Of a stretch of 64,000 bases of DNA, positions 38,100 to 61,680 are shown piece by piece (the first letter of the stretch is position 1; each line of letters begins with the position of its first letter). The position numbers were made by a program, and so were the translations under genes. Under the pieces are notes generated by a model that was not told where the DNA came from, did no database searches, and worked only from the letters and a program-made list of their open reading frames with translations. The stretch is from a virus: IMG/VR virus record IMGVR_UViG_3300023276_001265. One strand, given 5' to 3'.

Positions 38100-38102
38100 G
38101 AA

Positions 38103-41073: not shown

Positions 41074-42510
41074 ATGATGTTTCAAGCAAGACAAATGCTG
41101 ACAGAGAACATGGATGGTGTTGCTCTGTCGGACGACAGTGTGGTCGGCGCCTACACGCGCAAGTGGGCCCCGGTACTAGAGGGCATGGAGCACGAGATCG
41201 CGGATTTCGTTCCTCCAGGCCATACCTCCTACGTGAAGAGCATCGCTGCCTTCATGCTGGAAAACGAGAGTAAGCACCTTCGCCGTCTCTCTGAGGAAAC
41301 CCGCGCCTTGTCGGTCGGCCCATTCCTCAAATTCGTTTTCCCCGTTATCAGGCGAACCGCGATTCGCTTGGTTGCAACCTCGATCGCATCGGTCCAGCCC
41401 ATGACGGGCCCGATCGGTGGCATCGCGTTCTACCGTCCTCGCTACGCTTCTGACAAGGGTCAGATCACGGCTGGCACGGAGATGAACAAGAACTTTAACC
41501 GCTGGTATTCCAGCAACTTCATCGACGGCGAGCCGTTCGGCACCGGCGATGGCGTTACTGCTACCTTCACGGGTGCCCTCAAGTGGCCTCCAGTGATCGG
41601 CGGAACGGTTCAGATTCGCACCCAGGCTGGCGGAACGGCTGTCCTCGCGGTTGACGCCGGTGGCACCTTCACCGCTCTGGCTGGCGCCATGGCTGGTGGT
41701 TCTGGAACCATCAACTACACCACGGGCACCGTCACCCTCAACTTCGGAACCGCGCCTGCGCTCGGTGACACGGTCGAGGTCTTCTACCGGTACAACAACG
41801 AGCTCAACGCTCGTATCCCGGAAGTTCAGCTGGACATCACGATCCAGGAGATCCAGGCCGAGAGCCGCAAGCTCAAGAGCCTCGCCAGCGTCGAAGCCGC
41901 TGATGACCTCCGCGCCCTCTGGGGCCGTGACGTCGATGCGGACCTGGTCGCCCAGATGTCCGATGAGATGACCGCTGAAATCGATCGCGAGATCGTCGGC
42001 ACGATTCTTAACGGTGTCGAGTCTGCCGCCATTGTCCCTTGGGACCGTGCGACACCTTCGGCCGTTTCGGATCCTGAGCACCTCAAGTCGCTCGTGATCC
42101 GCATGTCGACTGCCTCGCAGGTCATTCACCGTCGCACCCAGCGTGCACCGGCCAACTGGGCGATCACCTCGTCTGAGGTCGCTGCTCTTCTGGAGACGAT
42201 GGAAGGCTTCTCGGCGATTGACGAAGGTCACGTCTACCAGGGCGGCATCAGCAAGGCTGGTGTTCTCAACCGCAAGTGGGTCATCTACGTTGATCCTGTC
42301 TTCCCGCAAGACAAGATCCTCATGGGGTATCAAGGACCAAGCATCCTCGATACGGGCGTCATCTACTCGCCCTACATCCCGATGGAGATCACGCCGAACT
42401 TCGTTGATCCAAATGACATGTCGCTGAGGCGTGCCATCCGGACCCGACACAAGATCTCGATGGTTCGTCCTGAATTCTTTTCTATGGTTAACATCACAAA
42501 CCTTGTCTAG
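41074..42510 (+). CDS. Major capsid protein (T4 gp23-like)
   Basis: KWAPVLEG; SVQPMTGPIGGI; AESRKLK; EAADDLRA; EIDREI; YSPYIP; RTR motifs. Confidence 0.95.
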   Translation: MMFQARQMLTENMDGVALSDDSVVGAYTRKWAPVLEGMEHEIADFVPPGHTSYVKSIAAFMLENESKHLRRLSEETRALSVGPFLKFVFPVIRRTAIRLVATSIASVQPMTGPIGGIAFYRPRYASDKGQITAGTEMNKNFNRWYSSNFIDGEPFGTGDGVTATFTGALKWPPVIGGTVQIRTQAGGTAVLAVDAGGTFTALAGAMAGGSGTINYTTGTVTLNFGTAPALGDTVEVFYRYNNELNARIPEVQLDITIQEIQAESRKLKSLASVEAADDLRALWGRDVDADLVAQMSDEMTAEIDREIVGTILNGVESAAIVPWDRATPSAVSDPEHLKSLVIRMSTASQVIHRRTQRAPANWAITSSEVAALLETMEGFSAIDEGHVYQGGISKAGVLNRKWVIYVDPVFPQDKILMGYQGPSILDTGVIYSPYIPMEITPNFVDPNDMSLRRAIRTRHKISMVRPEFFSMVNITNLV

Positions 42511-45207: not shown

Positions 45208-45846
45208 ATGCACCTCTCCCTTTCCTTTTCCCAAGACCTCTCCTATCGGCAAGAACTACGACTTGATCAACGACTCACACTGACCCAACGACTAATAGTC
45301 GAGGAGCGGATGCTCGCCAAGCGCCTGCTGCTAATCAAGAGAGTCCACGACATCAAATACAGGCTCTGGTGCGAGTGCGATAACTGCGGCCGGATGATCA
45401 AACCCATCGATATCCTGAAAGGCTTCAGCAACGACGTCACCGACACGAGGACTGCGTGCCCTAGATGCGGGAACAAGACACAGCCGAGACTGCTCGGCAA
45501 GGTCCAGGAGACAGGACGCTACAACTTCGCCTTCTATTGCCCAGAGCAGACGCTAGACAGGCTGGTGGACCTCGGCAGCGTGCCGTTCTATCAGCTTGAG
45601 CGAGACTACACTGATGTCCTACACTCTGCGGTCGTCCACTTCGGGAACATCTCCGCCGCCTACAAGCGGATCGGAATTGATTACGAAGTGCCAGCAATTC
45701 CGGACTGGAAACGGAGAGCTAGGCCGGTCCTTGGACTGCTGCCGGATAAGCAGATCGCCGACATAGTCGGAACAACCGTATACCAGATCAGAAAGCTGAG
45801 GAAGCGGTTCAAGATCGCCGGATTCAGCAAACGAAAGCTGCTGTGA
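45208..45846 (+). CDS. Zn-ribbon/HTH regulator with an RpoN Region I-like N-terminus
   Basis: LSLSFSQDLSYRQELRLDQRLTLTQRL; CDNC and CPRC; LPDKQIADIVG..RKLRKRFKI..SKRK. Confidence 0.65.
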   Translation: MHLSLSFSQDLSYRQELRLDQRLTLTQRLIVEERMLAKRLLLIKRVHDIKYRLWCECDNCGRMIKPIDILKGFSNDVTDTRTACPRCGNKTQPRLLGKVQETGRYNFAFYCPEQTLDRLVDLGSVPFYQLERDYTDVLHSAVVHFGNISAAYKRIGIDYEVPAIPDWKRRARPVLGLLPDKQIADIVGTTVYQIRKLRKRFKIAGFSKRKLL

Positions 45847-45860
45847 AGGTAGAACACTGT

Positions 45861-45995
45861 ATGGAAGATCACAAAGAATCCTGTCACTGCACGTGCCACG
45901 AACCTTACGAGACGTTCGATAGGGGCGATCTCTGCAGTGATGGGACCAGCTACTGGTGCGATCCCTGCTGGCAGAGCACGTGCGAGAACGGGTAG
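45861..45995 (+). CDS. 44-aa Cys-rich miniprotein
   Basis: MEDHKESCHCTCHEPYETFDRGDLCSDGTSYWCDPCWQSTCENG*; fills the gap between genes; GAAGGT upstream. Confidence 0.5.
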   Translation: MEDHKESCHCTCHEPYETFDRGDLCSDGTSYWCDPCWQSTCENG

Positions 45996-46000
45996 GGTCC

Positions 46001-46609
46001 TTAGCGTGCCATCCGATCGACAACGTGAACGGTGCCGGTGAGCGGGATCCAGTCGGACAAGCGCTCTCCCTGGGAGTTCTTCAGAAGGTTATTTGACCGG
46101 ACCGCTGGCACTCCGTGAGCCGACCCTATCGTCACGTGCTTGTCCGGCTTGTTCGAGAGGTGGTTAAGTCCTCGAACTCGCCCTGCTTCGATCTCGTCGT
46201 TTGCAGCGCGGTGAGTTACGTGGAAGTTAACCTGCTGACCGATGTGCTTGGAGAGCGCTTTCTTATGTTCATCCGTAAGATGTTGACCTGGAGGAACAAT
46301 CGTCACATGATCGCCCTGCACATTGGCGTGCTTCGGAGGGACGCCATTAAGCAGTCGTTGCTTAGATTTAGGCGACAAGGTGACCGCGACGTGATGTCGA
46401 GCTGGATCGTAGTGCGCTAGACTCGGATGAACTGGCTGCGAGGGTGCGCCTGGCTTAGTTCTAGGCTCTCTAGGACGACTGGGCCCAACCGGACGCCTAT
46501 GCGGCGCCCCTGATGGAGATACGGCTTCAACTGAAACATGATTCAGCGGGGACCTGAATAACTGATTCAGCAGAATCAGAGGAGTTCTACCTGTACGAGG
46601 TCCTACCAT
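46001..46609 (-). CDS. 2H phosphoesterase (cyclic phosphodiesterase, tRNA-ligase CPD-like) with an N-terminal tag
   Basis: Two HxT motifs (DHVTI, KHVTI); AVRSNNLL..LTGTV; N-terminus GRTPLILL..LFRSPL. Confidence 0.75.
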   Translation of the reverse strand: MVGPRTGRTPLILLNQLFRSPLNHVSVEAVSPSGAPHRRPVGPSRPREPRTKPGAPSQPVHPSLAHYDPARHHVAVTLSPKSKQRLLNGVPPKHANVQGDHVTIVPPGQHLTDEHKKALSKHIGQQVNFHVTHRAANDEIEAGRVRGLNHLSNKPDKHVTIGSAHGVPAVRSNNLLKNSQGERLSDWIPLTGTVHVVDRMAR

Positions 46610-46660
46610 GTTGCCCAGTATACCTCTAAGGGCGGCTATTCGAGTTTGGTGGCGGACTCG

Positions 46661-46746
46661 GATAGGCTAAGATGAGCTGATGCTCGCACAAAACTTCAAT
46701 CTTATTGAAGGTTCGCTCTACCGGTCCCCTCTAAGGCTGATGGAAG
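46661..46746 (+). repeat. 86-bp exact direct repeat, copy 1 (promoter plus tag codons)
   Basis: Identical to 47714-47799. Confidence 0.95.
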
Positions 46747-47690
46747 AGATGGACCCAGAGCTGAAAAAGGTGTGGGACCGTGGCTACCACCACGCCGTCA
46801 GAGGTACCGGGGTAAGCAATTTCGATTTTCAAGGTGAAGAATATAAAGCCTACAACGCTGGCTACGATTCTGGGATGAAGAGTCACGAGAAGATTCAGGT
46901 GGCGCCAGCTGAAGAGGGTGACGAAGTCTGGGATGCCTTTGACCGTAGTCAGCCTAAAACTCCCTGGTGGCATCGAGTCTTTAAGAATGATCGTAAAGAC
47001 TTCCAGTATGACATGTATGACTCAATTAGAGACGCCAGTGGGGATCTGGAGAGTAGTCAGGGGCACAAGTACGGGGAGCGGTTAGGGATCGGCGGCACTG
47101 CTATGGTCTTCAGGGGAGGATTGCACCCAGACCACGTCACTAAGCTCGAACTGGGTAACAGCGAAGCGCGACTAGCTGAATATGTAATGGGCAATGAAGC
47201 TCTTCGGAACAACGGAGCTTTACCTAATTTCCATGGGGTAACCCGCACGGAACACGCCCCGAGGGACAGGCGGATGGAACCTGGTCAGACTGTGCACGCC
47301 ATCCATCGCGAGGATCTCAAAGACGTTGAATTCAATGACGAAGAGGCGTGGCGCAAATATGTTAGCGCCGCAGGCAATTCAATCGGGACCCAGCAGTTCA
47401 ACTTTCACACTACTGCCGGGCGCGACAATATCGGTAGTCTTCTGGACCAGATCACCAGTGAACATCGACCGAATATGCACCCAGAGGATCTTGAGCAGTT
47501 CGATCAGTTTTCAGAGAACATAAAGTCAATGGCCCAAAACGGGATCCTGCCATCTGATATGTCCGTTACAGACAATGACCGCCATCTTGTGAACCTCGGT
47601 GTCAGACCATCCACGAACGAGGTCGTTGTCCGCGATATCGGCAGCTATCGTGTCGTAAGAAAGCCCTCTGGTCCGCGTCCGCAGATTTAG
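46680..47690 (+). CDS. Protein-kinase-fold protein with tag and RMF-like hairpin
   Basis: LGIGGTAMVF; VTKLE; IHREDL; PSDM....N; RDIG. Confidence 0.75.
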   Translation: MLAQNFNLIEGSLYRSPLRLMEEMDPELKKVWDRGYHHAVRGTGVSNFDFQGEEYKAYNAGYDSGMKSHEKIQVAPAEEGDEVWDAFDRSQPKTPWWHRVFKNDRKDFQYDMYDSIRDASGDLESSQGHKYGERLGIGGTAMVFRGGLHPDHVTKLELGNSEARLAEYVMGNEALRNNGALPNFHGVTRTEHAPRDRRMEPGQTVHAIHREDLKDVEFNDEEAWRKYVSAAGNSIGTQQFNFHTTAGRDNIGSLLDQITSEHRPNMHPEDLEQFDQFSENIKSMAQNGILPSDMSVTDNDRHLVNLGVRPSTNEVVVRDIGSYRVVRKPSGPRPQI

Positions 47691-47713
47691 AGCTAACCCC
47701 TCTGACTCTGAGA

Positions 47714-47799
47714 GATAGGCTAAGATGAGCTGATGCTCGCACAAAACTTCAATCTTATTGAAGGTTCGCTCTACCGGTCCCCTCTAAGGCTGATGGAAG
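47714..47799 (+). repeat. 86-bp exact direct repeat, copy 2
   Basis: Identical to 46661-46746. Confidence 0.95.
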
Positions 47800-48875
47800 G
47801 ATCCCCATCTGGATATTGGGACCATGAGAAAGAGGACTGGGTCCTTAACACCCCTAAGAGCCCCGCCACAGTGGCACGCGAAAAGGCAGAAATGGCTGCC
47901 AACACGAAGGCTTTTTACGACAACATGCGAGCGAATGAAACGCCCGAGGACAAGAAGAGACGCGCCCACGACCTCGGCTACCATCATGCTGTTCGCGGAC
48001 ATGAGCAGGACCCTAGCGCCTCCGATAACCAAGAGGCCTATATGGCCGGGTTCGAGGCGGCTAGAGGGAAGCACATTCCTGGGCTTCCTCCTAGCCTACG
48101 CCGAGACCTTGGCGGGCACTCCGGCATGCCCCGCTCCCGCCAGCACAAAAGTTTGATAGCGCTGCGTGACGCTTACGGTGATGATGGCCTTGCACGGACA
48201 ATGCGTGAGACGGGAGAGACCGCCGTTAAGGAACTAAAACAGTCTCGCCCAGAGCTCCAACTCGGTGATGAGCTCGGCTGCGGCAAGTTCGGCTGCGTCT
48301 ACAGGGCCCCTCCGCTATCAGATGGCACGGAGGCGATCATGAAGATCGATAGAGGCCTTGATGAAGGTGTGCTCGCTGAGGCCGTAATGCGAGACCCTGT
48401 CCTCAGCAAGCTCTCGTCCCTCCCGCGCTTTGGAAGCGTTACACCATTAAGTACTAATGACCCAGTGATGAAAAGAGGGGTAACGGCGATCCATCGAGAG
48501 AACCTTCGTGACCTTAACGCTGATGACCCACAGGAAAAGCAGCTTCAAGCATTCTTCGGGAATTGGTACCGGCCGTCCGGATTTGGACGGCATCTGAACG
48601 ACATTCTCCTTTACATGAGAGCAAAAAGGGGCATGGGTCGAGAGGACTACCTGCGCGGTTACGACGAGTTAATAAAGGAGGAACGACAACGGGCGGCTAA
48701 GAGCTTCGAGCCCCATGTAGGGGAACAGTTCGAGCGTGTCGCAGCTGATGTGCGTGAGCTTGTATCGCGAGGTGTGGTGCCGTGTGACCTTCATGAGGAT
48801 AATTGGGGAATTCGCCACAGTACCGGCGAGATTGTGATGCGCGATGTAGGCTGCGCTAAGGTGGCCGATGACTAG
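47733..48875 (+). CDS. Ser/Thr protein-kinase-like enzyme with tag and RMF-like hairpin
   Basis: LGCGKFGCVY; IMKI..E; CDLHEDNWG; RDVG. Confidence 0.85.
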   Translation: MLAQNFNLIEGSLYRSPLRLMEGSPSGYWDHEKEDWVLNTPKSPATVAREKAEMAANTKAFYDNMRANETPEDKKRRAHDLGYHHAVRGHEQDPSASDNQEAYMAGFEAARGKHIPGLPPSLRRDLGGHSGMPRSRQHKSLIALRDAYGDDGLARTMRETGETAVKELKQSRPELQLGDELGCGKFGCVYRAPPLSDGTEAIMKIDRGLDEGVLAEAVMRDPVLSKLSSLPRFGSVTPLSTNDPVMKRGVTAIHRENLRDLNADDPQEKQLQAFFGNWYRPSGFGRHLNDILLYMRAKRGMGREDYLRGYDELIKEERQRAAKSFEPHVGEQFERVAADVRELVSRGVVPCDLHEDNWGIRHSTGEIVMRDVGCAKVADD

Positions 48876-50526
48876 GCCCCTACTAAATCTGATAGAAGGG
48901 TCACTCTACCGGTCCCCTCTGAGACTGCTGGAAGCGCTGCAGGGCGAGCGTAAGCGCTCGTGGGACCTCGGCTATCGCCACTTCAAGAGATACGGGCCTG
49001 ATGGCTTCGATGACAGTAAGGCCGTTGACAAGGCCGCTTACAAGGTCGGATTTGATGGCGCAAGAGAGGAAGCCTCACAGGGAGCCTCACAAAGCGGACT
49101 TCGCGAGGTAAGCCGCGCTTCAGCTGTCCAAACACTGAAAGCCCTTCCGAGGGGTCTTCTGGCTGGATGGTTCAGGAACGCGGACCGAAAATACAAGGCC
49201 ATGCTCCTGAACCACATCAAGAAGAATCCAGAGGTTCGGAACGCCGGGCTGAACATCATGCACCAGGAATACCAGTCCATGACCAGGTCTCAGGTGCCGT
49301 TTGATGAGTTCATGGACACCCCCATCAGAATGTATCGAGGGGGTGGATCTCCTGCGGACGAGGCAGCCACGTCCTATTCCATGGACCAGAAGGTCGCCGA
49401 CTCATTCGTAGACCGGAAGGGCGCTGGTCTGTCTGTGATAGAGATCAAACCAAGGGATACCCTTGGGTCCTATCAGACCACCGCTGAGACTGAGGTTTTG
49501 ATTCCCTCGTGGGAAGGGAAGGACTTCATGGACGGTGACCCGCAGTTTAGAGGCCGCTCGAACTATGAGCTCCAGGCTGCAATCGGGGACACGAAGGCAG
49601 AACTGCGTCAGGACCGAAGCAGGTTGCCTGAGCTAAAAGCTCGCCACGGGGCCCTTCGTAACGAGCTCAAGGTTAGAGCTGCATCTGGCCATCAGAGCGT
49701 GAACCCTTACGATGTAGACCTGGAAGACGAGCGTAGAGAAGACGCGTGGGAACTAGGACGGTCTCACCGCGTAGACGGTCTCCCTAGAGACCCTGATCAC
49801 GCCGATGTCCGGCACAAAGGAGGTTATGAGGAAGGGTATAGTTCCGCCGAGATGAGTAGGGGTCAATTCCCCCAGGCTTCATGGGATGCAGGGCATGCTG
49901 CTGCCGATGCTGGAGAACTGGCCGATCGCCACCATCCGGACGTAGAAGATCCCAATGTCTACTTGAATGGCTACATGGCCAGTATGAATAAGCGCCCAGA
50001 TCCAAGGACGTCCGATCCGAACTATACCTATACGCCAGCCAACGATAACTATTACGACGTCGACCCAAATGATCACATCCAGCTACTAATTGATAGGTGG
50101 CAACAGGAGGAGCAGAGGCCTCGTCACGGAATAGGTCCTTTAATGGTTCCAGTTCACGAACTTTGGCCACACCGAGAGTATCTGCGCAACCCTGAACACA
50201 GTCGCGGTGGCGCCGAGCATTGGCATCAACTGAAGAAGAAGATGTCAGATGAGGGGTGGAATTCAGAGGAACCACTCGAACTACGCGTAGGCAGCGACGG
50301 GGGTGTGAAGATCGGCGAAGGAAATCACCGGCTGGCTATATCGAGAGAGCTAGGAGTCGACAAGGTGCCCGTTGATGTCGTCTACGATATAGGGCGTGTG
50401 ACGAAGAGTCCCCAGTCAACGCGTAGGACGCTCCCTAAAGAGAAGCCTCCAGAGTGGATGACCAAGGAACCCGGACCAGATAGCGATGAAGACCCGTTGA
50501 TTAAAGAACTATCAGGCCTATTTTGA
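48868..50526 (+). CDS. Multidomain protein: tag, RMF-like hairpins x3, ADP-ribosyltransferase-like domain, ParB/Srx domain
   Basis: R-S-E pattern MYRG..TSYS.D..VA..F..ETEVL; IGEGNHRLAISRELGVDKVPV. Confidence 0.75.
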   Translation: MTRPLLNLIEGSLYRSPLRLLEALQGERKRSWDLGYRHFKRYGPDGFDDSKAVDKAAYKVGFDGAREEASQGASQSGLREVSRASAVQTLKALPRGLLAGWFRNADRKYKAMLLNHIKKNPEVRNAGLNIMHQEYQSMTRSQVPFDEFMDTPIRMYRGGGSPADEAATSYSMDQKVADSFVDRKGAGLSVIEIKPRDTLGSYQTTAETEVLIPSWEGKDFMDGDPQFRGRSNYELQAAIGDTKAELRQDRSRLPELKARHGALRNELKVRAASGHQSVNPYDVDLEDERREDAWELGRSHRVDGLPRDPDHADVRHKGGYEEGYSSAEMSRGQFPQASWDAGHAAADAGELADRHHPDVEDPNVYLNGYMASMNKRPDPRTSDPNYTYTPANDNYYDVDPNDHIQLLIDRWQQEEQRPRHGIGPLMVPVHELWPHREYLRNPEHSRGGAEHWHQLKKKMSDEGWNSEEPLELRVGSDGGVKIGEGNHRLAISRELGVDKVPVDVVYDIGRVTKSPQSTRRTLPKEKPPEWMTKEPGPDSDEDPLIKELSGLF

Positions 50527-50548
50527 TACTCGCACAAACTTCAATCTT
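50524..50548 (+). pseudogene. Degenerate remnant of the tag-coding repeat
   Basis: TGATACTCGCACAAACTTCAATCTT versus TGATGCTCGCACAAAACTTCAATCTT (ATG>ATA, 1-nt deletion). Confidence 0.75.
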
Positions 50549-50553
50549 GTAGC

Positions 50554-50865
50554 CTATTTGAACTTGAGGTGGATCCGGTTACCAGTCTTCGGGTGTTCCC
50601 AGTAGTGGATCGTAACCTTACTCCCACCACTGGCCCGAGAGACGGCCTGACCTTTTAGGTGCCCCCTACGCTCGTCCTTACGGGTGCCAGGCTCGCCGCC
50701 TGGGTGAATGATGTGTTTACCCGTTCTGTTGTCCCGAAGGAATGACCCACCGTGTCCTGCCTGGACCGCACTTTTGAACATGTGCTCGTGGGTGTTGTTA
50801 GGCTCCTCACGGTAGGCCTGACCCTCGGCGATCAGACGAAGCGGAGATCGATGTAGCAGGGCCAT
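50554..50865 (-). CDS. Tagged miniprotein with a polymorphic-toxin-like C-terminus
   Basis: MALLHRSPLRLIAE; ends KVTIHYWEHPKTGNRIHLKFK. Confidence 0.65.
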   Translation of the reverse strand: MALLHRSPLRLIAEGQAYREEPNNTHEHMFKSAVQAGHGGSFLRDNRTGKHIIHPGGEPGTRKDERRGHLKGQAVSRASGGSKVTIHYWEHPKTGNRIHLKFK

Positions 50866-50927
50866 ACCCCCAGAATATCACACGTCGTTTTGCCTAGATC
50901 CCCTTTCTTGTCCATAAGGAGGCAGCA

Positions 50928-51101
50928 ATGGACGACATCGATAAAGAGGTCATTGCCCTAAAGGCGGCGATGGACAAAATCCTCGACGACCGAAGATCCA
51001 TCCACGCACCGTGCGAGAATGCCTACAAGGACGGCAGGGACGGTCTATGCTTCTGTGCTTGCTGGCGCTGCAGAGGGAGGGAGACCAGACACTGGCGTTA
51101 G
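50928..51101 (+). CDS. 57-aa protein with a Cys-rich C-terminus
   Basis: TAAGGAGG SD; MDDIDKEVIALK...CFCACWRC. Confidence 0.55.
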   Translation: MDDIDKEVIALKAAMDKILDDRRSIHAPCENAYKDGRDGLCFCACWRCRGRETRHWR

Positions 51102-51587
51102 GGCACACGTAGGGCACCCTTTCCGTATTTTCAGGAGTTGGCCGACCAGGAGCTCCAGCGATGCAACACGTTTACGCAGGGCATCCTTTGTTATCGGCTT
51201 GAGCTTCTCCTCAGGACAAGCGTTAGAGGTCACGTCGTAGAGGGGTTCCTCCTTGTTAGAGACCGTGCAGACCCTGGTCTGCCCTATCGCCGAGACGAGC
51301 CCATGAGCGCGAAGATCGTAAAGCCGTCGCACAAACGTGCTACCACGCGATACGTCCTTTGCGGTGTAGGCTTTTGTCGGCACCCCAGCCGCAACCGAAG
51401 CGTCCCGGTCCAGTTCTCTGAGAGTAAGGGGTCCACCCTCGTAAAGGACCTGGTAGACGACTCTCAGCGCCTTGGTAGCCCATCCTGATGCTTTGACCGA
51501 CTCCCAGGCCTCCGCAGACGCCGGACGCTTCCACGGACTAGAGTGAAGCATTGAATCATCAATTGTCGGCATGTCGTTCTCGTTCAT
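51045..51587 (-). CDS. Winged-helix-like DNA-binding protein
   Basis: VYQVLYEGGPLTLRELD..RRLYDLRAHGLV..RVCTVS. Confidence 0.6.
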   Translation of the reverse strand: MNENDMPTIDDSMLHSSPWKRPASAEAWESVKASGWATKALRVVYQVLYEGGPLTLRELDRDASVAAGVPTKAYTAKDVSRGSTFVRRLYDLRAHGLVSAIGQTRVCTVSNKEEPLYDVTSNACPEEKLKPITKDALRKRVASLELLVGQLLKIRKGCPTCALTPVSGLPPSAAPASTEA

Positions 51588-51748
51588 CTAGTACCACTTC
51601 CCGCAATCAAGGCACTCTCGCGATGGATCCCCTGTGCGAGCGAAGTTTGATGAAGATCGTGGCGGTTGCTGGACGCTGTGCGTCCCGCTCGACGTAGTCG
51701 CATATCAGCTCTACGTCGAGACCGGGCCACACATCAATCTGCTTGTCG

Positions 51749-52789
51749 CTACGACCCATCTGCGAGAGCGTGCTTGGCCACGCTGGACTTGAGCTTATCG
51801 ATCTCAATGCACCACGTCTCCATGCCGTTGAGACCGGCGTCACGGCGCAGAGTTGGACTCTTGAACCGAATGGACTTCTGGGCGACACGGACGATGGTCC
51901 GCACCTGCCGAGGAGTGGTGGCGCCGAGATCACGCACGACGGCTCCTACGACCTGGAGCATCCCAGGGACGCAGTAGGCGCTCTTGCAGGACGCCACGAC
52001 GCGCTTGGAGATACAGCGTGTGACCTCACCCTTCTTTTCATCCGGGAACTTGCCAGGAGTCCACCGCTTGTCGGTAGTCCACATAGTGAGGATGGTCCGC
52101 ATTTGCGTAACGAAGGTCTCGGGAATGACCGCATCGTGGGCCACCTCGTCCCAATACTTGGTCGTCTTTCCGCCCAGGAGTCCGATCCCGAGGCGCTTGA
52201 TGTGCTCGTAGAAGGTGCTGTATTCGCTAGCCAGGTCACGGGTCAGCTTTGCGACCTCGTTGTTCGAGACCAGACCGATGAACTTCTTCGACACCTTCGT
52301 CGCCTTGGAGTTGTAGATCAAGAACAGGTATCGAGCCTGCTCAAGGGACTTCACGGTGATGGTGACTGCAGGAATGCTCAGGCCAGCCTGAAGGGCGCCC
52401 TTCAGACGATGCTGACCATCAATGCACCACCGCTTGAGTCCGCGCTCACCTTTGAGGCGGGCCAGGAGAATAGGCGGCACAACAGGCGTGGGAGAGTAGA
52501 GCATGAACGCCGCCACCTCGTTGACCTGCTTATTGGAGAGCTGGCGCTGAAATCCGCCCTCCGTAGAAGTCCACTGCTGGACCTGATTCATCTCAGCGAG
52601 CGTGAGGTCCTTATAGGCCTTGGGAAGTTGGCGCTTAATGGCAGCTTTCCTGAGCTTGGACATCTCGGAAGCAGAGAGGGGTTGAGGTCCCTTCCGCTTC
52701 TTTTTCTTCTTGGTCGTCTTTTTGGTCGCCTTCTTGGTGACCTTCTTCTTCTTCTTGGTCTTTTTCTTTGCCTTCTTCTTGGTAGCCAT
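51749..52789 (-). CDS. DGQHR (ParB/DndB-superfamily) protein with a Lys-rich histone-like N-terminal tail
   Basis: FQRQL..IDGQHRL..FLIYNS; MATKKKAKKKTKKKKK... Confidence 0.8.
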   Translation of the reverse strand: MATKKKAKKKTKKKKKVTKKATKKTTKKKKKRKGPQPLSASEMSKLRKAAIKRQLPKAYKDLTLAEMNQVQQWTSTEGGFQRQLSNKQVNEVAAFMLYSPTPVVPPILLARLKGERGLKRWCIDGQHRLKGALQAGLSIPAVTITVKSLEQARYLFLIYNSKATKVSKKFIGLVSNNEVAKLTRDLASEYSTFYEHIKRLGIGLLGGKTTKYWDEVAHDAVIPETFVTQMRTILTMWTTDKRWTPGKFPDEKKGEVTRCISKRVVASCKSAYCVPGMLQVVGAVVRDLGATTPRQVRTIVRVAQKSIRFKSPTLRRDAGLNGMETWCIEIDKLKSSVAKHALADGS

Positions 52790-52836
52790 AGGGCCCCTTT
52801 CGTTGTCAATCCTTATACCTGGATGCTTGGCCGCGA

Positions 52837-53208
52837 TTAAAGCATTGCCATCCAGTCGAGAACAGACATATCAATGACCGCCTGACGGGCCAGACTCCAG
52901 GCTGATCTCATGTTCCACTTACCTGACTTCAGGATATCGATGGGGCGGTCCACGTGTTTACTGTGGAATGCCCCTCCCACCGTGACCGTCCACTCTTTGA
53001 GGGCATCGTCGCACGTAAGCTCAATCCCACAGGGCTCTGAGGTGGCATTGATGATCACGTCTGGGTTGTTATCGATCTCGTGATCCTCGTAGGACATCTT
53101 CTCTACGAGATAGAGTTTGATGGGCGCATTGTCTCGTTCACCTTGTGCGACGAACCTGACCCAACCTATAGCTGCTTTCATCGGTCCCAAGTCGGTATGT
53201 CCTATCAC
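52837..53208 (-). CDS. Hypothetical protein with C-terminal SVLDWMAML motif
   Basis: 123-aa ORF. Confidence 0.55.
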   Translation of the reverse strand: MIGHTDLGPMKAAIGWVRFVAQGERDNAPIKLYLVEKMSYEDHEIDNNPDVIINATSEPCGIELTCDDALKEWTVTVGGAFHSKHVDRPIDILKSGKWNMRSAWSLARQAVIDMSVLDWMAML

Positions 53209-53243
53209 GACATGGTTATACCGACTTAGGCGCTAGCAGCTAC

Positions 53244-54653
53244 TTAGTTCCCACTCTCACGACCGCCGCCAGGGGCGCGACGTCCGCCTCGTCTACGGCT
53301 GTTCGTGCGACCACGACCGCCCCCCTCATGGGGGCGGTGGCTGGTGCGGTTGCTGCCACGATTTCTGCCGCTTTGGGGATTATCATCTGCCCCGCCGCCT
53401 TGGGGGTCCTTACGCTGTCCAGTTCTAGCCCAACGCGGCTCGCCACGACCCGCAGGACCTGAGAATTCTCCAGGAGATGTATCTGGTTCTGGACGGGACG
53501 CTTGCCGGTCGCCCCTACCTTGGCGGGTGAATCTCGCATGGTAGCGATCGCGATCCTGCTGTCGAGCACTGGCTCTCTCTTGAGTATCCTTCTCATGCTC
53601 TGCCGAACTACCGTCAAACTGAGGGTAGTCTGGGTGTCCTGGGTAACCTGGATGGTTCTCGTAACCGCCTATGACCGGAGCACTATCGTCGTCGTAGTCA
53701 TCGTAGTCGAAGCGTCGATCGTCGTAGTCATAATCGTCATCGTAGTCATCGTAGTCGGCATAGTGGTAGCGATCGAGGTCATCGTCATCCCCGTTAGCCA
53801 GACGTGCCGCTCTCTGTGCTTCCCTGTCAGCCGCTTCAACGTCTCTCTGGCGTTGATCTATTACCCTTTTCCTCTTAGCCGCCCTAAGCGTTGTCTTCCG
53901 ATCAGGAATTCTTTCGACGTCCGCGTCGGACAGACCACTGATGTCCGAGTTCTTCTCACGACCACTAAGCGTCGACCGAACATACTTTTCATCGTAACCA
54001 CGATCTGTGTAGTGGTTGACAATTCGGTCGCGTTCCGCCTGGCGTTCCCGCCCGTAACGGCCAATCCCTGGATTACCCTGTGTAAACGCGTGCCCAATGT
54101 GTTCTGGGCTATGAGGAAGAGCGCGAGGCGTCTCGTTGTCATGCGGCTCGTAGATGCGCGGTCCGTGTGGGTGATCCCAGTTAATCTTGCTCCCCTTCTT
54201 GGAATAGATGGGCGAGTTTTCTACCTCTGGAGTTCGGGCTATTTCTGCCCGCTTAGTCCAGCGATCCGATGCTGGGTTAGCGTCATGGTCCCAACTGACT
54301 TTATTCTCCGGCTCCATCTCTTCAGGACTTTTGGTGTTGTATTGATGTTTATCCGGGTCGTCATCACCAATACAGGTGTTGTGCTGTGTTGCCTTAGAAC
54401 CTGAAGGGCACTTACCACCGTTCCACTGAGGACGAGTGAACCAACCCTTACCGTTGAAGCGCCAGTTGTGTTCTTTATCTGGAGGACCAGCACGCCTCTT
54501 CTCATGACCGGCCCGCTGTTGGGCGTGCGTATCTGTTGGATCTGCGGCTGCTCGACGCTCAAGTGCGCGGAGCCCACGATCCATCTCGCTGAGCAATTTC
54601 AACGGTGATCGACCGATGGAATCTAGAAGGATGAGGCTGGATCTGGTGAGCAT
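53244..54653 (-). CDS. Tagged disordered protein with D/Y-rich and R/G-rich tracts
   Basis: MLTRSSLILLDSIGRSPLKLLSE; TATACT 7 nt before the ATG. Confidence 0.75.
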   Translation of the reverse strand: MLTRSSLILLDSIGRSPLKLLSEMDRGLRALERRAAADPTDTHAQQRAGHEKRRAGPPDKEHNWRFNGKGWFTRPQWNGGKCPSGSKATQHNTCIGDDDPDKHQYNTKSPEEMEPENKVSWDHDANPASDRWTKRAEIARTPEVENSPIYSKKGSKINWDHPHGPRIYEPHDNETPRALPHSPEHIGHAFTQGNPGIGRYGRERQAERDRIVNHYTDRGYDEKYVRSTLSGREKNSDISGLSDADVERIPDRKTTLRAAKRKRVIDQRQRDVEAADREAQRAARLANGDDDDLDRYHYADYDDYDDDYDYDDRRFDYDDYDDDSAPVIGGYENHPGYPGHPDYPQFDGSSAEHEKDTQERASARQQDRDRYHARFTRQGRGDRQASRPEPDTSPGEFSGPAGRGEPRWARTGQRKDPQGGGADDNPQSGRNRGSNRTSHRPHEGGGRGRTNSRRRGGRRAPGGGRESGN

Positions 54654-54716
54654 GATGCTCAGTATAACTCCTTGTTGGTCCCCTATTGTAGGTAGAAAGG
54701 ACTAGATAGGAGCCCT

Positions 54717-54929
54717 ATGAGCAATGACGCAGACGCACGTAGACGGCAGGCCATAGCCAAGCTCAGCAGCGCAATAATGATCATAACCCACCTAGTCGGC
54801 GAGCCTGAGCTATCTGACTACTACAAGGAGCGACTCAGTGAGGTCTTAGAGAGCCTCACTAGATCCCGATACCTACTCGTTGAGCATGAGGAGCCGGATG
54901 GGATCCTAGACGAACTAGCGCAACTATGA
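54717..54929 (+). CDS. Small helical protein with C-terminal GILDELAQL motif
   Basis: AGGAG SD; 70 aa. Confidence 0.6.
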   Translation: MSNDADARRRQAIAKLSSAIMIITHLVGEPELSDYYKERLSEVLESLTRSRYLLVEHEEPDGILDELAQL

Positions 54930-54966
54930 AGTTCAGACCAGTGCTTCCTTTGGGTATACTTTGGTC

Positions 54967-56604
54967 ATGTCCAAGCATCACCTCAATCTGATCGAAGGCT
55001 GTCTCTACAGGACACCTCTCATTTTAGAGGCGAAATCGCCGACCGACATGTCCTGGGACCTCGGCTTCCACCACGCCAATCGTGGCAAGAAGGCTGAACC
55101 TAACGGCCCCACCGTCAGCGACGGTGACGCCTACATGGCTGGGTATAACCACTCCAGGCAAAAGGTGACAGCCGCACAGCCGGATCACGGTCAAGGTGGC
55201 GACCAAGAACTACGTCCCTCTAACTGGGCCGATAGTCGACCAGAACAGGACATCAAACCCAGTATGAGACTCAGTCTCCACGATGTGCCTAAATCCGTGC
55301 TAACCCTTGCGAAGGCCCTCGAAGCGGCTGGAGGGCGTGCGCTTGTGGTTGGTGGAGCGGTACGTGACAAGATCATCGGCAGCTCTCCGAAGGATTGGGA
55401 CGTCGAAGTCTACGGGATGGACCCGGACAAGTTGACGGAGGAGCTTTCCAAGCTAGGTCGAGTTGACGCCGTTGGAAAGAAGTTCGGCATCCTGAAAATC
55501 GTCATTGGGGACGAGGACTTTGATGTGTCGATCCCTAGACGTGAGAATAAGGTGGGCCAAGGACACAAAGGCTTCATCCCCGTCCCAGACCCGACAATGA
55601 CGATCAGTGAGGCGGCTAAGCGGCGCGACGTCACCATCAACACCGTGTCGATGGATCCGTTCACCGGGGATGTCTACGACCCCTACAACGGGGTCGATGA
55701 CATCAACAACCGCGTACTAAGGGCCACGGACCCTGAAGCGTTCGCCGAAGACGCGGTTCGGATACTTCGCGGTGCCCAGTTTGCCGCCCGATTTCAACTC
55801 TCTGTAGATCCTGAGACGATGCAGCTAATGGCGGACGCCGCTCCGGAACTCGCCCTTGAGCCCCCGGAGCGCGTTGGAGATGAATGGCGGAAGCTCCTGC
55901 TAAAGAAGGGCGTAAAGCCGTCTATTGGCATGGAGGTGCTAAAGCGGTCTGGCGCCCTGAAGATCCTTCACCCCGATCTCGCCTCTCAGGCTGATAGTGA
56001 GTCCTGGGAAAGGCTTAAGCAGGTCACAGATCGTTCGATTGGCCTCACCGCCGAGTCGGAAGAAGACTTCAAGGTAATGGTTCGTTTTGCGTCAGTGTTC
56101 CACAACACTAATCCGCGTGGAATGGCCAAGATGCTCCACTCAAGTCTGAGGATTCCTAAAAACTCTGGGCAAGCGATGAGGATCGAGCGACTGGTCGGAG
56201 CGCTACCTCACGCTAACAGCGAGATGTCGGACGCTGATATCCGACATCTGTCCAAGCGTCTTAGCCCTAAAAATATCCAAGACCCGACTAACACATCAAT
56301 CGAAGCCTTCGCTCTCCTGGTCGGGAGTGTTCGCGGTGAAGAAGAAGGAGCACAGCTCCTTCAAAGGGCAGAAAATCTAGGTGTGAGCAAAGCGCCACCT
56401 GTTGAGCTCTTCACAGGAGATCACCTGAACAGTTTCGGGGTTAAGCCCAGTCGGCAGTTCGGAGAGATCCTTAGGCAGGTCTACAAATTGCAGCTAGACG
56501 GCCAGGTTGTAGACCTTGATAGCGCGAAGGTAGCCGCCAGGCAACTCGCCGGGCTTCCTCCAGAAGATCCAAGCCAGCAGCGAGAATCGCTCAACCTGAT
56601 CTAA
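54967..56604 (+). CDS. cca: Class II tRNA nucleotidyltransferase (CCA-adding enzyme) with tag and RMF-like hairpin
   Basis: VGGAVRD..KDWDVE; RRDVTIN; EDAVRILRGAQFAARF; PERVGDEW. Confidence 0.88.
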   Translation: MSKHHLNLIEGCLYRTPLILEAKSPTDMSWDLGFHHANRGKKAEPNGPTVSDGDAYMAGYNHSRQKVTAAQPDHGQGGDQELRPSNWADSRPEQDIKPSMRLSLHDVPKSVLTLAKALEAAGGRALVVGGAVRDKIIGSSPKDWDVEVYGMDPDKLTEELSKLGRVDAVGKKFGILKIVIGDEDFDVSIPRRENKVGQGHKGFIPVPDPTMTISEAAKRRDVTINTVSMDPFTGDVYDPYNGVDDINNRVLRATDPEAFAEDAVRILRGAQFAARFQLSVDPETMQLMADAAPELALEPPERVGDEWRKLLLKKGVKPSIGMEVLKRSGALKILHPDLASQADSESWERLKQVTDRSIGLTAESEEDFKVMVRFASVFHNTNPRGMAKMLHSSLRIPKNSGQAMRIERLVGALPHANSEMSDADIRHLSKRLSPKNIQDPTNTSIEAFALLVGSVRGEEEGAQLLQRAENLGVSKAPPVELFTGDHLNSFGVKPSRQFGEILRQVYKLQLDGQVVDLDSAKVAARQLAGLPPEDPSQQRESLNLI

Positions 56605-56723
56605 ATCAGGTCAGCAGCTATCTGCTGGCTAATTAGGCCATTAGACATTCGGCTCTAATGCTCTGTAAATGATTAAGCCTAGTCAACCGTACTGATGCGT
56701 AATACGCTGCATTGGAGGGTTGT

Positions 56724-57056
56724 ATGGGACAATTTGAGATAGGACTCATTTACAAGAAAAGTGGACGCCTCCACATCGCGGTGGACCCCGACACACTTGT
56801 CAGCTGCAAGAACGGCAAAGCCAGCAAGATTAAACCGACATCAAAGTATGAGGTGGTCCGGTCGATCTCAGTTGAGGCTCTCACAGAGAGCTGGGGTATT
56901 ACCCTCGATGCGTTCGACAAACTGGTTGGCGCCTACCTTGGTCCACCAGAAGGTTGCGTCAAGGCAAGGCCGCGTGGAACGCGCCGCACTACCCAAACTG
57001 AAGAGGACTACTGGAAGCGTTCGCGCACTGGCAGGATCGCTCGGCCTCGTCTCTAA
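56724..57056 (+). CDS. Basic hypothetical protein
   Basis: GGAGG SD before ATG 56724. Confidence 0.6.
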   Translation: MGQFEIGLIYKKSGRLHIAVDPDTLVSCKNGKASKIKPTSKYEVVRSISVEALTESWGITLDAFDKLVGAYLGPPEGCVKARPRGTRRTTQTEEDYWKRSRTGRIARPRL

Positions 57057-57063
57057 TAGGCGC

Positions 57064-57315
57064 ATGACCAAGTGCACTAACGAGATAACCGGAATGGATC
57101 TTACCTGCGGCGAGGTTGGGTCCCACGACCTCAGACGCTACTGCTCTGACGAATGTGCGGACCGAGAGGGAAAGGCAGAGCTAGCGGCCCTCGGCATTAC
57201 GCAGGGAATGATGGAAGAGGCGCGTGACGGCTACTACGAGTGCAAGGATATGATCGAGCAACGCAAGGGCAGAAGTTCTACTTCCGGCGAAGAGACACCA
57301 TCGTGCTCCCCCTAG
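57064..57315 (+). CDS. Small Zn-finger-like protein
   Basis: C..C..YCSDEC. Confidence 0.5.
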   Translation: MTKCTNEITGMDLTCGEVGSHDLRRYCSDECADREGKAELAALGITQGMMEEARDGYYECKDMIEQRKGRSSTSGEETPSCSP

Positions 57316-57721
57316 TCGTCAGACTAAGGGTGATGATGTTGTGGGCCAAGAGCGCGTCGATATAGACGTCGATGACTGAGATTTCGAGGTTGAGCTCACG
57401 GCAGAGACGTTGTTTCGTCCGAGCGCCGTGGTCCACAAGATTCTGTAGGATTTCTTGAGCTGTGATACCACGGAGGTTGACGTCGGTGGGCGCCGTCAGC
57501 CCCTGGCGGATTCGGTCGTCCTCATCAGCACGGCGACGGATATCGGCGGCTACCCTACGACTGTAGGGATTCAGCTCTACATGTTCAGGGCAGTATGGTT
57601 TGCCCTCACGTGTGGCTAGCACGCACTCATCCGCAGAGCACGAACGAGTATTGGAGAGACTTGATTTGACTCTCGCCGGGAGCACTACTTTCATTTCCAT
57701 CTCCGTTCTGTCGGAGCCCAA
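57278..57721 (-). CDS. Zn-finger plus winged-helix protein
   Basis: CSADEC..YCPEH; RTKQRLCRELNL..YIDALL..II. Confidence 0.6.
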   Translation of the reverse strand: MGSDRTEMEMKVVLPARVKSSLSNTRSCSADECVLATREGKPYCPEHVELNPYSRRVAADIRRRADEDDRIRQGLTAPTDVNLRGITAQEILQNLVDHGARTKQRLCRELNLEISVIDVYIDALLAHNIITLSLTTRGSTMVSLRRK

Positions 57722-57804
57722 ACCGTAGACATTCGCAAATGAACGTCACTAGGTCCAGAACTCCTAGTCTGCTTTTACCCAGTTACGACAGGTATACATA
57801 AGTC

Positions 57805-58107
57805 ATGAGGACACCTAGTTGGATTGCAATGGAGCAGGTTCGGCTCGACTCCAAACTTGCATTCACGATAGAACCGGCGCCGCCCCATCCTCCCAGGTCA
57901 GAGCTAGCCTTGGAGAAAGGTCAGAGAGTGTTCCTTCTAACCATTGAGGGAGAATTTCCAGCACGGGTAGTTAAGGCCTGGACTGGAGGAAATATGCTGA
58001 TCCCCGTCAGGGCTCTCCTCGATGGCGCCGAAGAGTCCCGATGGATTCGAATGCACCGTAAGAGCTTTAGAGCTTTCTCAGTGCTGGATTTGCTGGCTGA
58101 TGTGTAG
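57805..58107 (+). CDS. Hypothetical protein with C-terminal SVLDLLADV motif
   Basis: 100-aa ORF; GGTATAC upstream. Confidence 0.6.
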   Translation: MRTPSWIAMEQVRLDSKLAFTIEPAPPHPPRSELALEKGQRVFLLTIEGEFPARVVKAWTGGNMLIPVRALLDGAEESRWIRMHRKSFRAFSVLDLLADV

Positions 58108-58178
58108 AGGATTCGTACCACTGAGAGTTTGGAGCTATCGCTGATTCTGGAAAGCATCACATCTGATACACTTAGTGG

Positions 58179-58670
58179 ATGATATTACCGAAAACCCCCA
58201 GATACGGCACCTTCGATCAACTCATGGAGAATCGTCCGGGGCACGGCGGCTACGGAGATGTGACCTGGAACGTAGGACCTCACTCATCCCCCATCCAAGA
58301 AGGTAGGGTCGTGTGGGCAGATGTGGGACGTCTGCTGACCATGATTCCTAAGAAGAAGTTGGCTGAGTCGATTGATCGATTCGTGAACTCGGCCAGTCAA
58401 TCCATGGTTCGCGGTGACGTTGTAGAGGTCCCAAAGATCGTATTTGAGGGAATGGCGGCTGTGATCGACCCAGCGCACCATGGCGCTATGGTCGCCGCAA
58501 GTAGGCGAGGTGCGACCCGCGTACCAATCGTCTACCAGGAGGGCTCTCCTGGCGTCCTAGGGCTAGGCGGTGTCGAGCCTATCTCTCCGGGTCGCCCTGA
58601 CCAGAGCCCTGACCAGAAGTGGCGCTGGAACGGTCGTAGCTGGTACACCAACGACAGCTTCGGCAAATAG
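58179..58670 (+). CDS. Degenerate ParB-like protein with a Trp-rich tail
   Basis: VIDPAHHGAMVAASRRGATRVPI; SPDQKWRWNGRSW; N-terminal TFDQLME. Confidence 0.55.
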   Translation: MILPKTPRYGTFDQLMENRPGHGGYGDVTWNVGPHSSPIQEGRVVWADVGRLLTMIPKKKLAESIDRFVNSASQSMVRGDVVEVPKIVFEGMAAVIDPAHHGAMVAASRRGATRVPIVYQEGSPGVLGLGGVEPISPGRPDQSPDQKWRWNGRSWYTNDSFGK

Positions 58671-58772
58671 CTTTATTTATCGATTTTCAGGCCTCATCGC
58701 CCAAATAAACCTTCCCAGTCGGGTAAAAGGTTGAGAGCTTAAGTATGTACTAACCCCCCCAGGAGAATTCTC

Positions 58773-59039
58773 ATGATGATCTTTCCATCGTCCATGAAGC
58801 CCAAGGCACTACTACAGAACAAAGGTCAGCCTCACCCGTTTAAGTGCGACCTCTGCGGTGAGTCCGATGAGGGCGTATGCGTTCAGCCAGACGATTCGGA
58901 GCGGAGCGCCTGGGCCGTATTGCCTGAGGAATGGGAAGAGGTCGAGGATCGCAGACCGAAGGTCAAGCAGAAATTCATGATCGTCTGCTCCAGTTCGGAA
59001 TGCCTCCACAAAGCCCACGAGCGGGCCAACGTCGGGTAG
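58773..59039 (+). CDS. Zn-ribbon protein
   Basis: CDLC..LPEEW..CSSSEC; AGGAG SD. Confidence 0.6.
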   Translation: MMIFPSSMKPKALLQNKGQPHPFKCDLCGESDEGVCVQPDDSERSAWAVLPEEWEEVEDRRPKVKQKFMIVCSSSECLHKAHERANVG

Positions 59040-59227
59040 CCATTGGCGTTAGGATCATCGCCGAGAACCAGGTTGCACGAAAGCCGTGAGAGTTGTAATT
59101 TGGTCGATACGGGGCCAGAATCTAAAGAAAAATAGATTCTTCGAACATTCGGGCCATGAAGTCGGGTATACGAACATTGCAGCGACGATGATTCTACCCA
59201 CGACACAGACAACAGGAGGTTAAACCA

Positions 59228-61638: not shown

Positions 61639-61654
61639 TCCGCGAAACCAACTA

Positions 61655-61680
61655 GAAAGCGCCCCAAAGGCGCTTTCGTT
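61655..61680 (+). terminator. Probable terminator hairpin
   Basis: GAAAGCGCC-CCAAA-GGCGCTTTC, weak U tail. Confidence 0.55.

Follow-up and report, generated by a model that had tools for sequence, protein, structure and literature searches.

Diverse defence proteins of phage T4 have in common a capsid-targeting sequence of 10-20 residues that is cut by gp21 (PMC3012670, PMC7697877, PMC5694885), and the internal proteins of the T-even phages, themselves diverse defence proteins, share only this sequence (PMC3012670). The T4 prohead protease acts inside proheads, and multiple cuts inside one propeptide are known (PMC5694885). In the T4 record, the leaders end in I-A-E (IPII and IPIII), I-T-E (IPI), and F-D-E (Alt). 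The ejection proteins of the giant phages phiKZ, 201phi2-1, and SPN3US carry propeptides that are cut several times at x-x-E sites by a T4-related prohead protease, and include diverged paralogs with conserved N-termini (PMC5694885). [quoted passage not shown] The polyvalent proteins described by Iyer, Burroughs, Anand, de Souza, and Aravind in 2017 combine 2-15 conflict-related domains in one polypeptide (the ART, MPTase, ParB, and related set with kinases) and are predicted to accompany the DNA on delivery (PMC5512222).

The window, the whole stretch of DNA that was analysed, comprises 64,000 nt within a 167.8-kb contig. Eight of its open reading frames (ORFs) were reported in a preliminary description to begin with a common leader containing R-[ST]-P-L, and all eight N-termini match the reading quoted there:

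46680-46748, plus strand: leader (residues 1-23) of kinase-like protein 1 (gene 46680-47690; tag HMM E 2e-12)
47733-47801, plus strand: leader (residues 1-23) of kinase-like protein 2 (gene 47733-48875; found by the tag HMM)
48868-48936, plus strand: leader (residues 1-23) of a 552-residue multidomain protein (gene 48868-50526; found by the tag HMM)
54967-55032, plus strand: leader (residues 1-22) of a CCA-adding enzyme (gene 54967-56604; found by the tag HMM)
50821-50865, minus strand: shortened leader (residues 1-15, one unit) of a 103-residue protein (gene 50554-50865)
54585-54653, minus strand: leader (residues 1-23, two units) of a 469-residue highly charged, low-complexity protein (gene 53244-54653; HMM E 4e-6)
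46523-46609, minus strand: leader (residues 1-29, two units) of a 202-residue 2H-like protein (gene 46001-46609; HMM E 1e-7)
16366-16527, plus strand: N-terminal 54 residues, with units at residues 13-20 and 45-53, of a 616-residue protein (gene 16366-18216; HMM E 0.003)

Counted in the six-frame translation of the window, R-[ST]-P-L occurs 30 times. Of 51 genes, 7 have it among their first 30 residues, against an expectation of ~0.36 (Poisson P ~1e-7). An HMM of the tag, run on the ORFs of the window, separates the eight tagged ORFs (E values from 2e-12 to 0.06) from every other six-frame ORF, the best of which reaches 0.09.

The leader, with a total length of ~22 residues, is bipartite and consists of two tandem units of ~10 residues, each of the form R-[ST]-[PSA]-L-x-L-[LIV]-[ED] and closing in [LI]-x-E. 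Unit 2 terminates in L-x-E in almost every family member; the middle residue of this motif varies among L, M, V, T, A, and S, and the position after the Glu is taken by A, G, E, D, M, T, S, or K. A methionine lies 10-15 residues upstream of R-[ST]-P-L in more than 20 proteins, and at a distance of 14 in most of them. The 103-residue protein has an ortholog in L014 and L015 (74% identity) that possesses both units, and orthologs of the 469-residue protein are present in L015, L016, L018, and L020. In the 616-residue protein, the additional unit at residues 13-20 makes the leader N-terminal there as well. The leader is disordered in both available AlphaFold2 (AF2) models (pLDDT 20-36), as would be consistent with a linear motif.

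Across 91 pairs, the pS value of the leader is 0.58 versus a pN of 0.19, and the R, S, P, and L of the tag are written with many different codons, indicating selection on the peptide and not on the DNA. These values bear on the idea that the leader is a functionless passenger, hitch-hiking in a promoter-plus-start cassette spread by duplication and recombination. An exact 86-bp repeat (46661-46746), spanning part of the leader of kinase-like protein 1 and covering the promoter and tag common to both kinase-like genes, would fit such a cassette, as would the shuffling of cargo, exemplified by P0005, whose N-terminal half is as in the 48868 protein while its C-terminal half is different. Beyond this one recent duplication, however, the DNA has diverged to the pS given above with the peptide kept, and the tag is conserved among loci whose cargo shares only 30-60% identity. 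On the pS and pN values, we reject the view that a cassette at the DNA level explains the leader by itself, and we regard this idea as exceedingly improbable.

The proteins carrying the tag had been described as unrelated. Once the tag is taken away, kinship is indeed limited to the two kinase-like proteins (28% identity, E 2e-19), but the proteins starting at 46680, 47733, 48868, and 54967 also have a second common module behind the tag, helical and ~40 residues long, so that the set is not wholly unrelated. The assignments of individual proteins fared differently. The CCA-adding enzyme is supported by Pfam matches to PolyA_pol (3e-21) and PolyA_pol_RNAbd (9e-11) and by the PHROG tRNA nucleotidyltransferase family (8e-58). 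For kinase-like protein 2, the AF2 model has a mean pLDDT of 69 (~30 for leader residues 1-41), and the top Foldseek matches in the PDB are all kinases (E ~1e-4), in agreement with the initial label. The "2H" label of the 202-residue protein has two H-x-T motifs as its only basis, and we term it 2H-like; the C-terminal end of P0049, which has a canonical tag and module, is similar to it. In the 48868 protein, proposed to be an ART plus ParB, no Pfam match was obtained and the family profile found no PDB relative. Its AF2 model is poor (pLDDT 47, with leader residues 1-18 disordered) and provides a weak DRAT-like lead (TM 0.44). Tagged P0032 has a Pfam ART-PolyVal match (1e-7), and hhalign of the 48868 protein against it aligned only the leader and module; the ART-like and ParB-like parts are weak leads and putative.

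Among the relatives, further tagged cargo comprises ART-PolyVal, HD, HEAT, and HExxH proteins. P0026, P0027, and P0038 are multi-module tagged proteins, in which, as in P0019, the tag is also found internally at domain junctions. The domain repertoire overlaps with that of the polyvalent proteins (ART-PolyVal, kinases, Pol-beta nucleotidyltransferases, 2H, ParB-like domains, and zincin-like peptidases). It differs in that the domains mostly occupy separate genes under the same leader; no MuF match was obtained in any tagged protein scanned, and fusions to MuF or portal domains were not observed.

The head genes that would take part in loading and processing lie upstream of most of the tagged genes:

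37221-39083 (37221-38099 and 38103-39083), plus strand: two putative core or scaffold proteins with N-terminal [LI]-x-E sites
39210-41015, plus strand: gp21-type prohead protease fused to a long coiled-coil tail (Pfam Peptidase_S77, 7e-15; PHROG head maturation protease, 4e-36)
41074-42510, plus strand: gp23-type major capsid protein with propeptide [LI]-x-E at residues 9-11 and 72-74 (Pfam Gp23, 3e-58)

The identification of a gp21-like protease is confirmed by its S77 domain and by its alignment with T4 gp21, which includes an identical nine-residue block containing a serine. We take the aligned gp21 regions to be those bearing the catalytic His and Ser, and propose this protein as the putative processing enzyme for the leader. 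The claim that the end of the tag recurs in the capsid propeptide and the core proteins is likewise borne out. In 11 relatives, the capsid propeptide keeps the pattern [RK]-R-L-[SNT]-E and L-x-E, the L and E being conserved with a varying middle residue. The sites of the core proteins, I-A-E and R-R-L-N-E, are conserved in L002, where these proteins are 69-79% identical.

With moderate confidence, and on circumstantial evidence, we consider the leader to be a capsid-loading propeptide removed by the prohead protease. This reading is based on a leader that is N-terminal, disordered, selected as a peptide, and terminated by [LI]-x-E plus a small residue; on the same motif in head propeptides, together with a gp21-type protease and a gp23-type capsid; on cargo domains of kinds known from injected polyvalent proteins (PMC5512222); and on the constant Met spacing, the tags at domain junctions, and the position of the cluster next to the head genes. 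The ~22-residue leader would dock the protein into the assembling prohead core. Both units end in an [LI]-x-E site predicted for the gp21-type protease, which may clip the leader in one or two cuts. The mature enzymes would then be retained inside the head until they pass into the cell along with the DNA, and an internal tag in a longer protein could serve as a protease-cut joint. Every prediction of the T4-style reading that can be tested at the sequence level holds, while docking, packaging, cleavage, and injection are steps that we infer.

As in T4, where the capsid-targeting sequence of IPI, IPII, IPIII, and Alt is cut by gp21, otherwise unrelated accessory proteins carry a short N-terminal leader that terminates in [LI]-x-E and a small residue (PMC3012670, PMC7697877). 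Both phages have a gp21-type protease, a gp23-type capsid, and hypervariable cargo loci, and the T4 cargo also includes an enzyme, Alt. Unlike its T4 counterpart, the leader is about twice as long, bipartite, built around a conserved Y-R-[ST]-P-L core, and in most cases backed by a helical module; its cargo consists mostly of large enzymes encoded by leaderless genes, and packaging in this phage is a prediction. The tag HMM gave negative scores on T4 IPII, IPIII, Alt, gp24, gp67, gp68, and gp22 and did not report IPI, also in the set, and this dissimilarity to the T4 leaders counts against capsid loading. Most likely, the leader represents a new version of the T4 load-then-clip signal, a kind of idea that is already known. 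The giant-phage propeptides, which are mostly longer than 100 residues, differ in not being one portable tag on unrelated proteins and in their [ASG]-x-E cleavage motif (PMC5694885). In P1, where no protease-site logic is described, the Dar proteins have no common consensus.

Other features of the tagged genes speak against capsid loading or leave it open. They are leaderless, and a separate -10-like hexamer lies 5-8 nt upstream of every ATG, unlike in the head genes, which have Shine-Dalgarno sites in an operon arrangement. The tagged genes were also searched for the T4 late box (TATAAATA), which is absent, and for -35 elements of the sigma-70 type, found at one site only; the tagged genes could be expressed early. 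Y-R-[ST]-P-L, the most strongly conserved part of the tag, is outside the putative cut sites and is not accounted for by them. Two further observations appear to argue in the same direction. The conserved helical module usually lies behind the tag, and the CCA enzymes keep a unit-like motif, with a conserved L-N-L-[ILV], at their extreme C-terminus as well, which the propeptide model would not need.

The own promoters, the joint occurrence of tag and module in most family members, and the C-terminal motif, as expected of a binding peptide usable at either end, could instead indicate that the leader, often with the module, docks onto a cytoplasmic partner (the host ribosome, the clamp, or a phage adaptor) and gathers the enzymes at one site with no packaging. 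Translation or tRNA could be the target of much of the cargo (the CCA-adding enzyme, the 2H-like protein, and the kinases). The units show x-[LF]-x-L-[LIV], resembling clamp-binding peptides, but the bacterial sliding-clamp binding motif is Q-L-x-L-[FL] with a conserved Gln, and this Gln is missing from the units. Moreover, tag and module are also found apart (the tag without the module in three window proteins and in L017:3010, the module in internal repeats without the tag), and the invariant L and E around a variable middle residue, with a small residue next, follow the site pattern of the head proteins. No candidate partner was identified, and we consider docking unlikely, if credible.

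A leader that is N-terminal, disordered, and attached to potentially cell-harming enzymes could also be a degron or an inhibitory propeptide that limits their lifetime or activity and is recognised or removed by a host or phage cytoplasmic protease, for which the conserved acidic-ended units could be the sites. This seems very unlikely to us: the internal and C-terminal copies are hard to account for, the match to the head-protein sites points to the prohead protease, and the leader does not seem to resemble the known classes of bacterial N-terminal degrons. Lastly, a modification could be made at the conserved Y-R-S-P-L core, the leader being recognised by one modifying enzyme encoded elsewhere in the genome in the manner of RiPP leaders. 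The cargo, however, consists of large enzymes and not of small precursors, and no candidate enzyme co-occurs in the loci compared, which are short contigs; we judge this highly improbable.

Like encapsulin cargo peptides, the leader is a short peptide in which a conserved G-S-L has hydrophobic and basic residues on its flanks, and the shell has the HK97 fold in both cases. Unit 1 matches the native Myxococcus xanthus encapsulin peptide at 5 of 8 positions (PMC7925596). Encapsulin peptides are typically C-terminal and uncut, on cargo encoded beside an encapsulin shell gene, and their key hydrophobic position is a Glu in the tag; the tag being N-terminal and the shell a gp23-type phage capsid, the leader does not fit this class and the resemblance may be due to chance. 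As a long shot, unit 1 (L-I-E-G-S-L-Y-R) and the C-terminal L-N-L-[ILV] of the CCA enzymes might be encapsulin-like loading peptides that bind the inner face of the HK97-fold shell instead of the scaffold, with unit 2 serving as the site of release by the protease and the helical module then sending the freed enzymes to the host translation apparatus. Were this true, the leader would be a two-stage address label and a mechanistic link between phage heads and encapsulins.

If the leader loads proteins into the head, as in the capsid-loading reading, phages of this lineage would bring a swappable kit into the cell along with their DNA, made up of kinases, a CCA-adding enzyme for tRNA, a 2H phosphoesterase, and proteins of the ART, HD, and peptidase types. 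The idea of T4 internal proteins would then extend from small inhibitors to whole enzymes, phage engineering would gain another portable tag for packaging, with no sequence relationship to the first, and the tag would flag uncharacterised proteins as candidate anti-defence or host-takeover factors.

Among 1.84 billion protein clusters, the tag is found in only 43, all of them metagenomic, from one phage lineage, and with no isolate. A megablast of the head region gave no match to isolated phages, the best isolate capsid protein being 35% identical; tblastn searches of 50,697 phage records with the tag region returned chance matches only, and scans of IMG/VR with the 48868 protein, the exact tag 17-mer, and the tag alignment returned nothing. 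That the matches include no cultured relative, the lineage being known from metagenomic sequence alone, weighs against capsid loading. The tag profile found nothing in the whole contigs of five relatives, as was confirmed on all 203 kb of the near relative G001. G001 has the same head genes (capsid protein 94% identical, core proteins and protease 64-79%) but lacks the entire 45-63 kb accessory region and any homolog of the 616-residue protein, whose gene is inserted in the tail module. The presence of these head genes in a tag-free phage speaks against capsid loading or leaves it open: the tag receptor is either unused in G001 or not a head protein. A search of G001 for another common N-terminal tag using shared 5-mers found none, and only a C-terminal motif of the V-L-D-R-L type. 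In the window, the tagged cluster occupies a hypervariable region immediately downstream of the head genes, and the layout in L024 is identical.

All eight N-termini quoted in the preliminary description were confirmed in the window sequence. Six-frame translation of the window contains 30 instances of R-[ST]-P-L, and the motif falls within the first 30 residues of 7 of the 51 genes versus about 0.36 expected (P about 1e-7). With the tag profile, the eight ORFs score E-values from 2e-12 to 0.06, the top other six-frame ORF scoring 0.09.

The leader consists of two tandem units of roughly ten residues that follow the pattern R-[ST]-[PSA]-L-x-L-[LIV]-[ED]. In its usual version, only a degenerate [FL]-N-L-I-E-G is left of unit 1, and unit 2 reads L-Y-R-[ST]-P-L-x-L-x-E. 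Both units are recognisable in a second form, found in the family of the 54653(-) protein and in the metagenome loci L014, L018, and L021, and the 16366 protein has an extra unit at residues 13-20. The distance from Met to Arg is 10-15 residues in more than 20 proteins, mostly 14. Since the R, S, P, and L codons vary freely from gene to gene and substitution over 14 tags gives pS of 0.58 versus pN of 0.19, what is conserved is the peptide, not the DNA. The exception to this DNA divergence is an 86-bp exact repeat common to the two kinase-like genes, and a hitch-hiking cassette is a barely credible origin for the tag. The leader is disordered in both AlphaFold models (pLDDT 20-36). That it acts as a degron or inhibitory propeptide is improbable, and recognition by a modifying enzyme seems quite improbable.

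The capsid protein is of the gp23 type (Pfam 3e-58), and the protein at 39210 is, as proposed, a gp21-like protease (S77/gp21-type, 7e-15) that carries a long coiled coil as a fusion. A nine-residue Ser-containing block is identical in this protease and T4 gp21, and their alignment spans the regions that we take to hold the gp21 catalytic His and Ser. In the capsid propeptides of 11 relatives (68-98% identical), two sites are kept in which [LI] and E never change but the residue between them does, one near residue 10 and the other, [RK]-R-L-[SNT]-E-E, near residue 74. The two putative core proteins carry I-A-E and R-R-L-N-E sites, also found in L002. The [LI]-x-E pattern noticed earlier at the tag ends holds: unit 2 terminates like these sites, typically with R-L-x-E followed by a small residue, its middle residue varying across the family, and unit 1 ends in L-I-E-G. 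According to the T4 record, I-A-E precedes Ala at the end of the leaders of IPII and IPIII, the IPI leader ends in I-T-E, a leader of the L-x-x-E / F-D-E kind opens Alt, and cleavage of gp23 follows L-T-E. The T4 gene 67 product (prohead core gp67; NC_000866) contains N-F-L-I-E-G, near the N-F-N-L-I-E-G of unit 1, a likeness that may merely reflect a common protease site.

In T4, the capsid-targeting sequence is an N-terminal propeptide of 10-20 residues removed by gp21; it allows almost any protein to be loaded into the prohead and is the sole feature that T-even internal proteins, otherwise diverse, have in common (PMC3012670, PMC7697877, PMC5694885). The tag has no sequence homology to it, but shows the testable structural features of that system and is predicted to work in a like manner. 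The best reading, to which we give about an even chance, is that the tag is a propeptide that loads proteins into the capsid and is clipped off by the prohead protease. This would account for the placement of the tag at the N-terminus, its disorder, the invariant L..E, the likeness to head-protein sites, the copies found internally at junctions, and the types of cargo. Left unexplained by it is the very strong conservation of Y-R-S-P-L. That the tag is instead a docking motif binding a cytoplasmic partner is rather unlikely. Distinctive of this case are the bipartite 22-residue tag, the coupled helical module, the leaderless cassettes, and the enzyme cargo.

The tagged proteins had been described as unrelated past the tag apart from the kinases. 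The kinase-like pair is indeed the only related one (28% identity, E 2e-19), but four of the proteins share a weak match of about 40 residues. Directly behind the tag in the 46680, 47733, 48868, and 54967 proteins lies a second module, W-D-L-G-Y-H-H-A-x-R-G ... A-Y-x-x-G-[YF], of about 40 residues, modelled as a helical hairpin (pLDDT 58-76). It is repeated within the 48868 protein, and occurs without the tag in the relatives P0046, P0052, and P0054. A tentative likeness to RMF has been suggested for it.

Copies of the helical-hairpin module
46773-46880
47970-48070
48961-49060
49750-49990
55054-55150

The kinase-like proteins conserve G-x-G-x-x-G, Lys, H-R-E-D, D..N, and D-V-G, with weak profile matches to Ser/Thr kinases. 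The assignment is borne out by an AF2 model of the 47733 protein (core pLDDT 80-92) for which all top Foldseek matches are kinases, and both Pfam and PHROG back that of the CCA enzyme. On inspection only, the 46001-46609 protein, with its two H-x-T motifs, appears 2H-like; the ART and ParB parts of the 48868 protein are leads only. Tagged relatives include an ART-PolyVal protein (P0032; Pfam, 1e-7) and proteins with HEAT repeats (P0043), HD (P0055, P0015), or HExxH (P0006, P0009), and P0019 has a SET domain fused ahead of the tag. This repertoire overlaps that of the polyvalent proteins, catalogued as moving together with the DNA of phages or plasmids (PMC5512222). Tags internal to longer proteins lie at module junctions (P0026, P0027, P0038), as protease-cut joints would be expected to look.

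The first ~270 residues of P0005 are as in the 48868 protein (48868-50526), its C-terminal half being kinase-like, not ParB-like, and the SET-domain protein that stands alone in L022 (L022:2341-2778) is joined in frame to a tagged kinase in P0019; both pairs are cases of cargo shuffling. Most CCA-adding enzymes (window 56584-56604; L016, L021, L022, L023; 48-64% identity) end in R-E-[SNQ]-L-N-L-[ILV], which resembles unit 1 and in L016 lies ten residues before the end. The capsid-loading reading does not explain this R-E-x-L-N-L-[ILV] terminus. The C-terminus of P0010 is a nearly complete second tag, cut off by the stop.

Every tagged gene, in the window and in relatives, has a -10-like hexamer T-A-n-n-n-T that lies 5-8 nt ahead of the ATG, and lacks a Shine-Dalgarno site, whereas the head genes have Shine-Dalgarno sites and an operon arrangement. 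No T4 late box was found before the tagged genes, and a plausible -35 precedes only one. Leaderless genes without the tag (43530, 53208, 57805, and a small ORF near 14,031) indicate that the tag is not required for leaderless translation. Hexamers at these starts include TATACT, TAAGAT, GATATT, and TAAAAT, and in relatives TAGAAT, TATGAT, and TATAAT; TATACT has three copies in 64 kb, all before tagged genes.

Leaderless start regions in the window
46610-46679
50866-50927
54654-54716
54940-54966
57780-57804
14017-14033

The nearest capsid protein from an isolated phage is 35% identical, and a tag search among isolated phages found no carrier. The tag alignment, run as a word-indexed search, added about 17 proteins, and a metagenome scan gave 12 loci. 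Because only 43 tag clusters came up when 1.84 billion cluster representatives were searched exhaustively with the profile, the tag is confined to one narrow lineage. The accessory region is syntenic with L016 and L020, and in L024 (capsid gene 95% identical) a tagged gene lies 3 kb downstream. G001, a 203-kb relative, has a 94% identical capsid protein and all of the head-tail module (window 1-44,500) in common, syntenic at 50-94% identity, but lacks the 16366 gene and every window gene from 45,208 to about 63,000. The tag profile found nothing in G001 (best E 2), nor was an alternative shared N-terminal peptide found there; this absence beside conserved head genes is not explained by capsid loading.

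Window stretches without a homolog in G001
45208-63331, a large hypervariable accessory region directly after the capsid gene
16366-18582
4194-6782

Other genes of the accessory region
51749-52789, minus strand, ParB/DndB-like protein (PHROG ParB-like 2e-8, Pfam DndB 1e-3)
59228-60931, plus strand, 567-aa protein with a GHKL-type ATPase domain (Pfam HATPase_c_3 2e-15), kept in L020
52837-53208 (minus), 54717-54929 (plus), and 57805-58107 (plus), small proteins with a C-terminal motif of the [VI]-L-D-x-[LM] type

The N-terminus of the ParB/DndB-like protein is rich in Lys and is coded for by a periodic repeat of 12 nt, and the gene is kept in L016, L018, and L020, adjoining tagged genes. The [VI]-L-D-x-[LM] C-termini presumably resemble T4-type clamp-binding tails, and the most widely shared 5-mer of G001, V-L-D-R-L (8 ORFs), is of the same C-terminal type.
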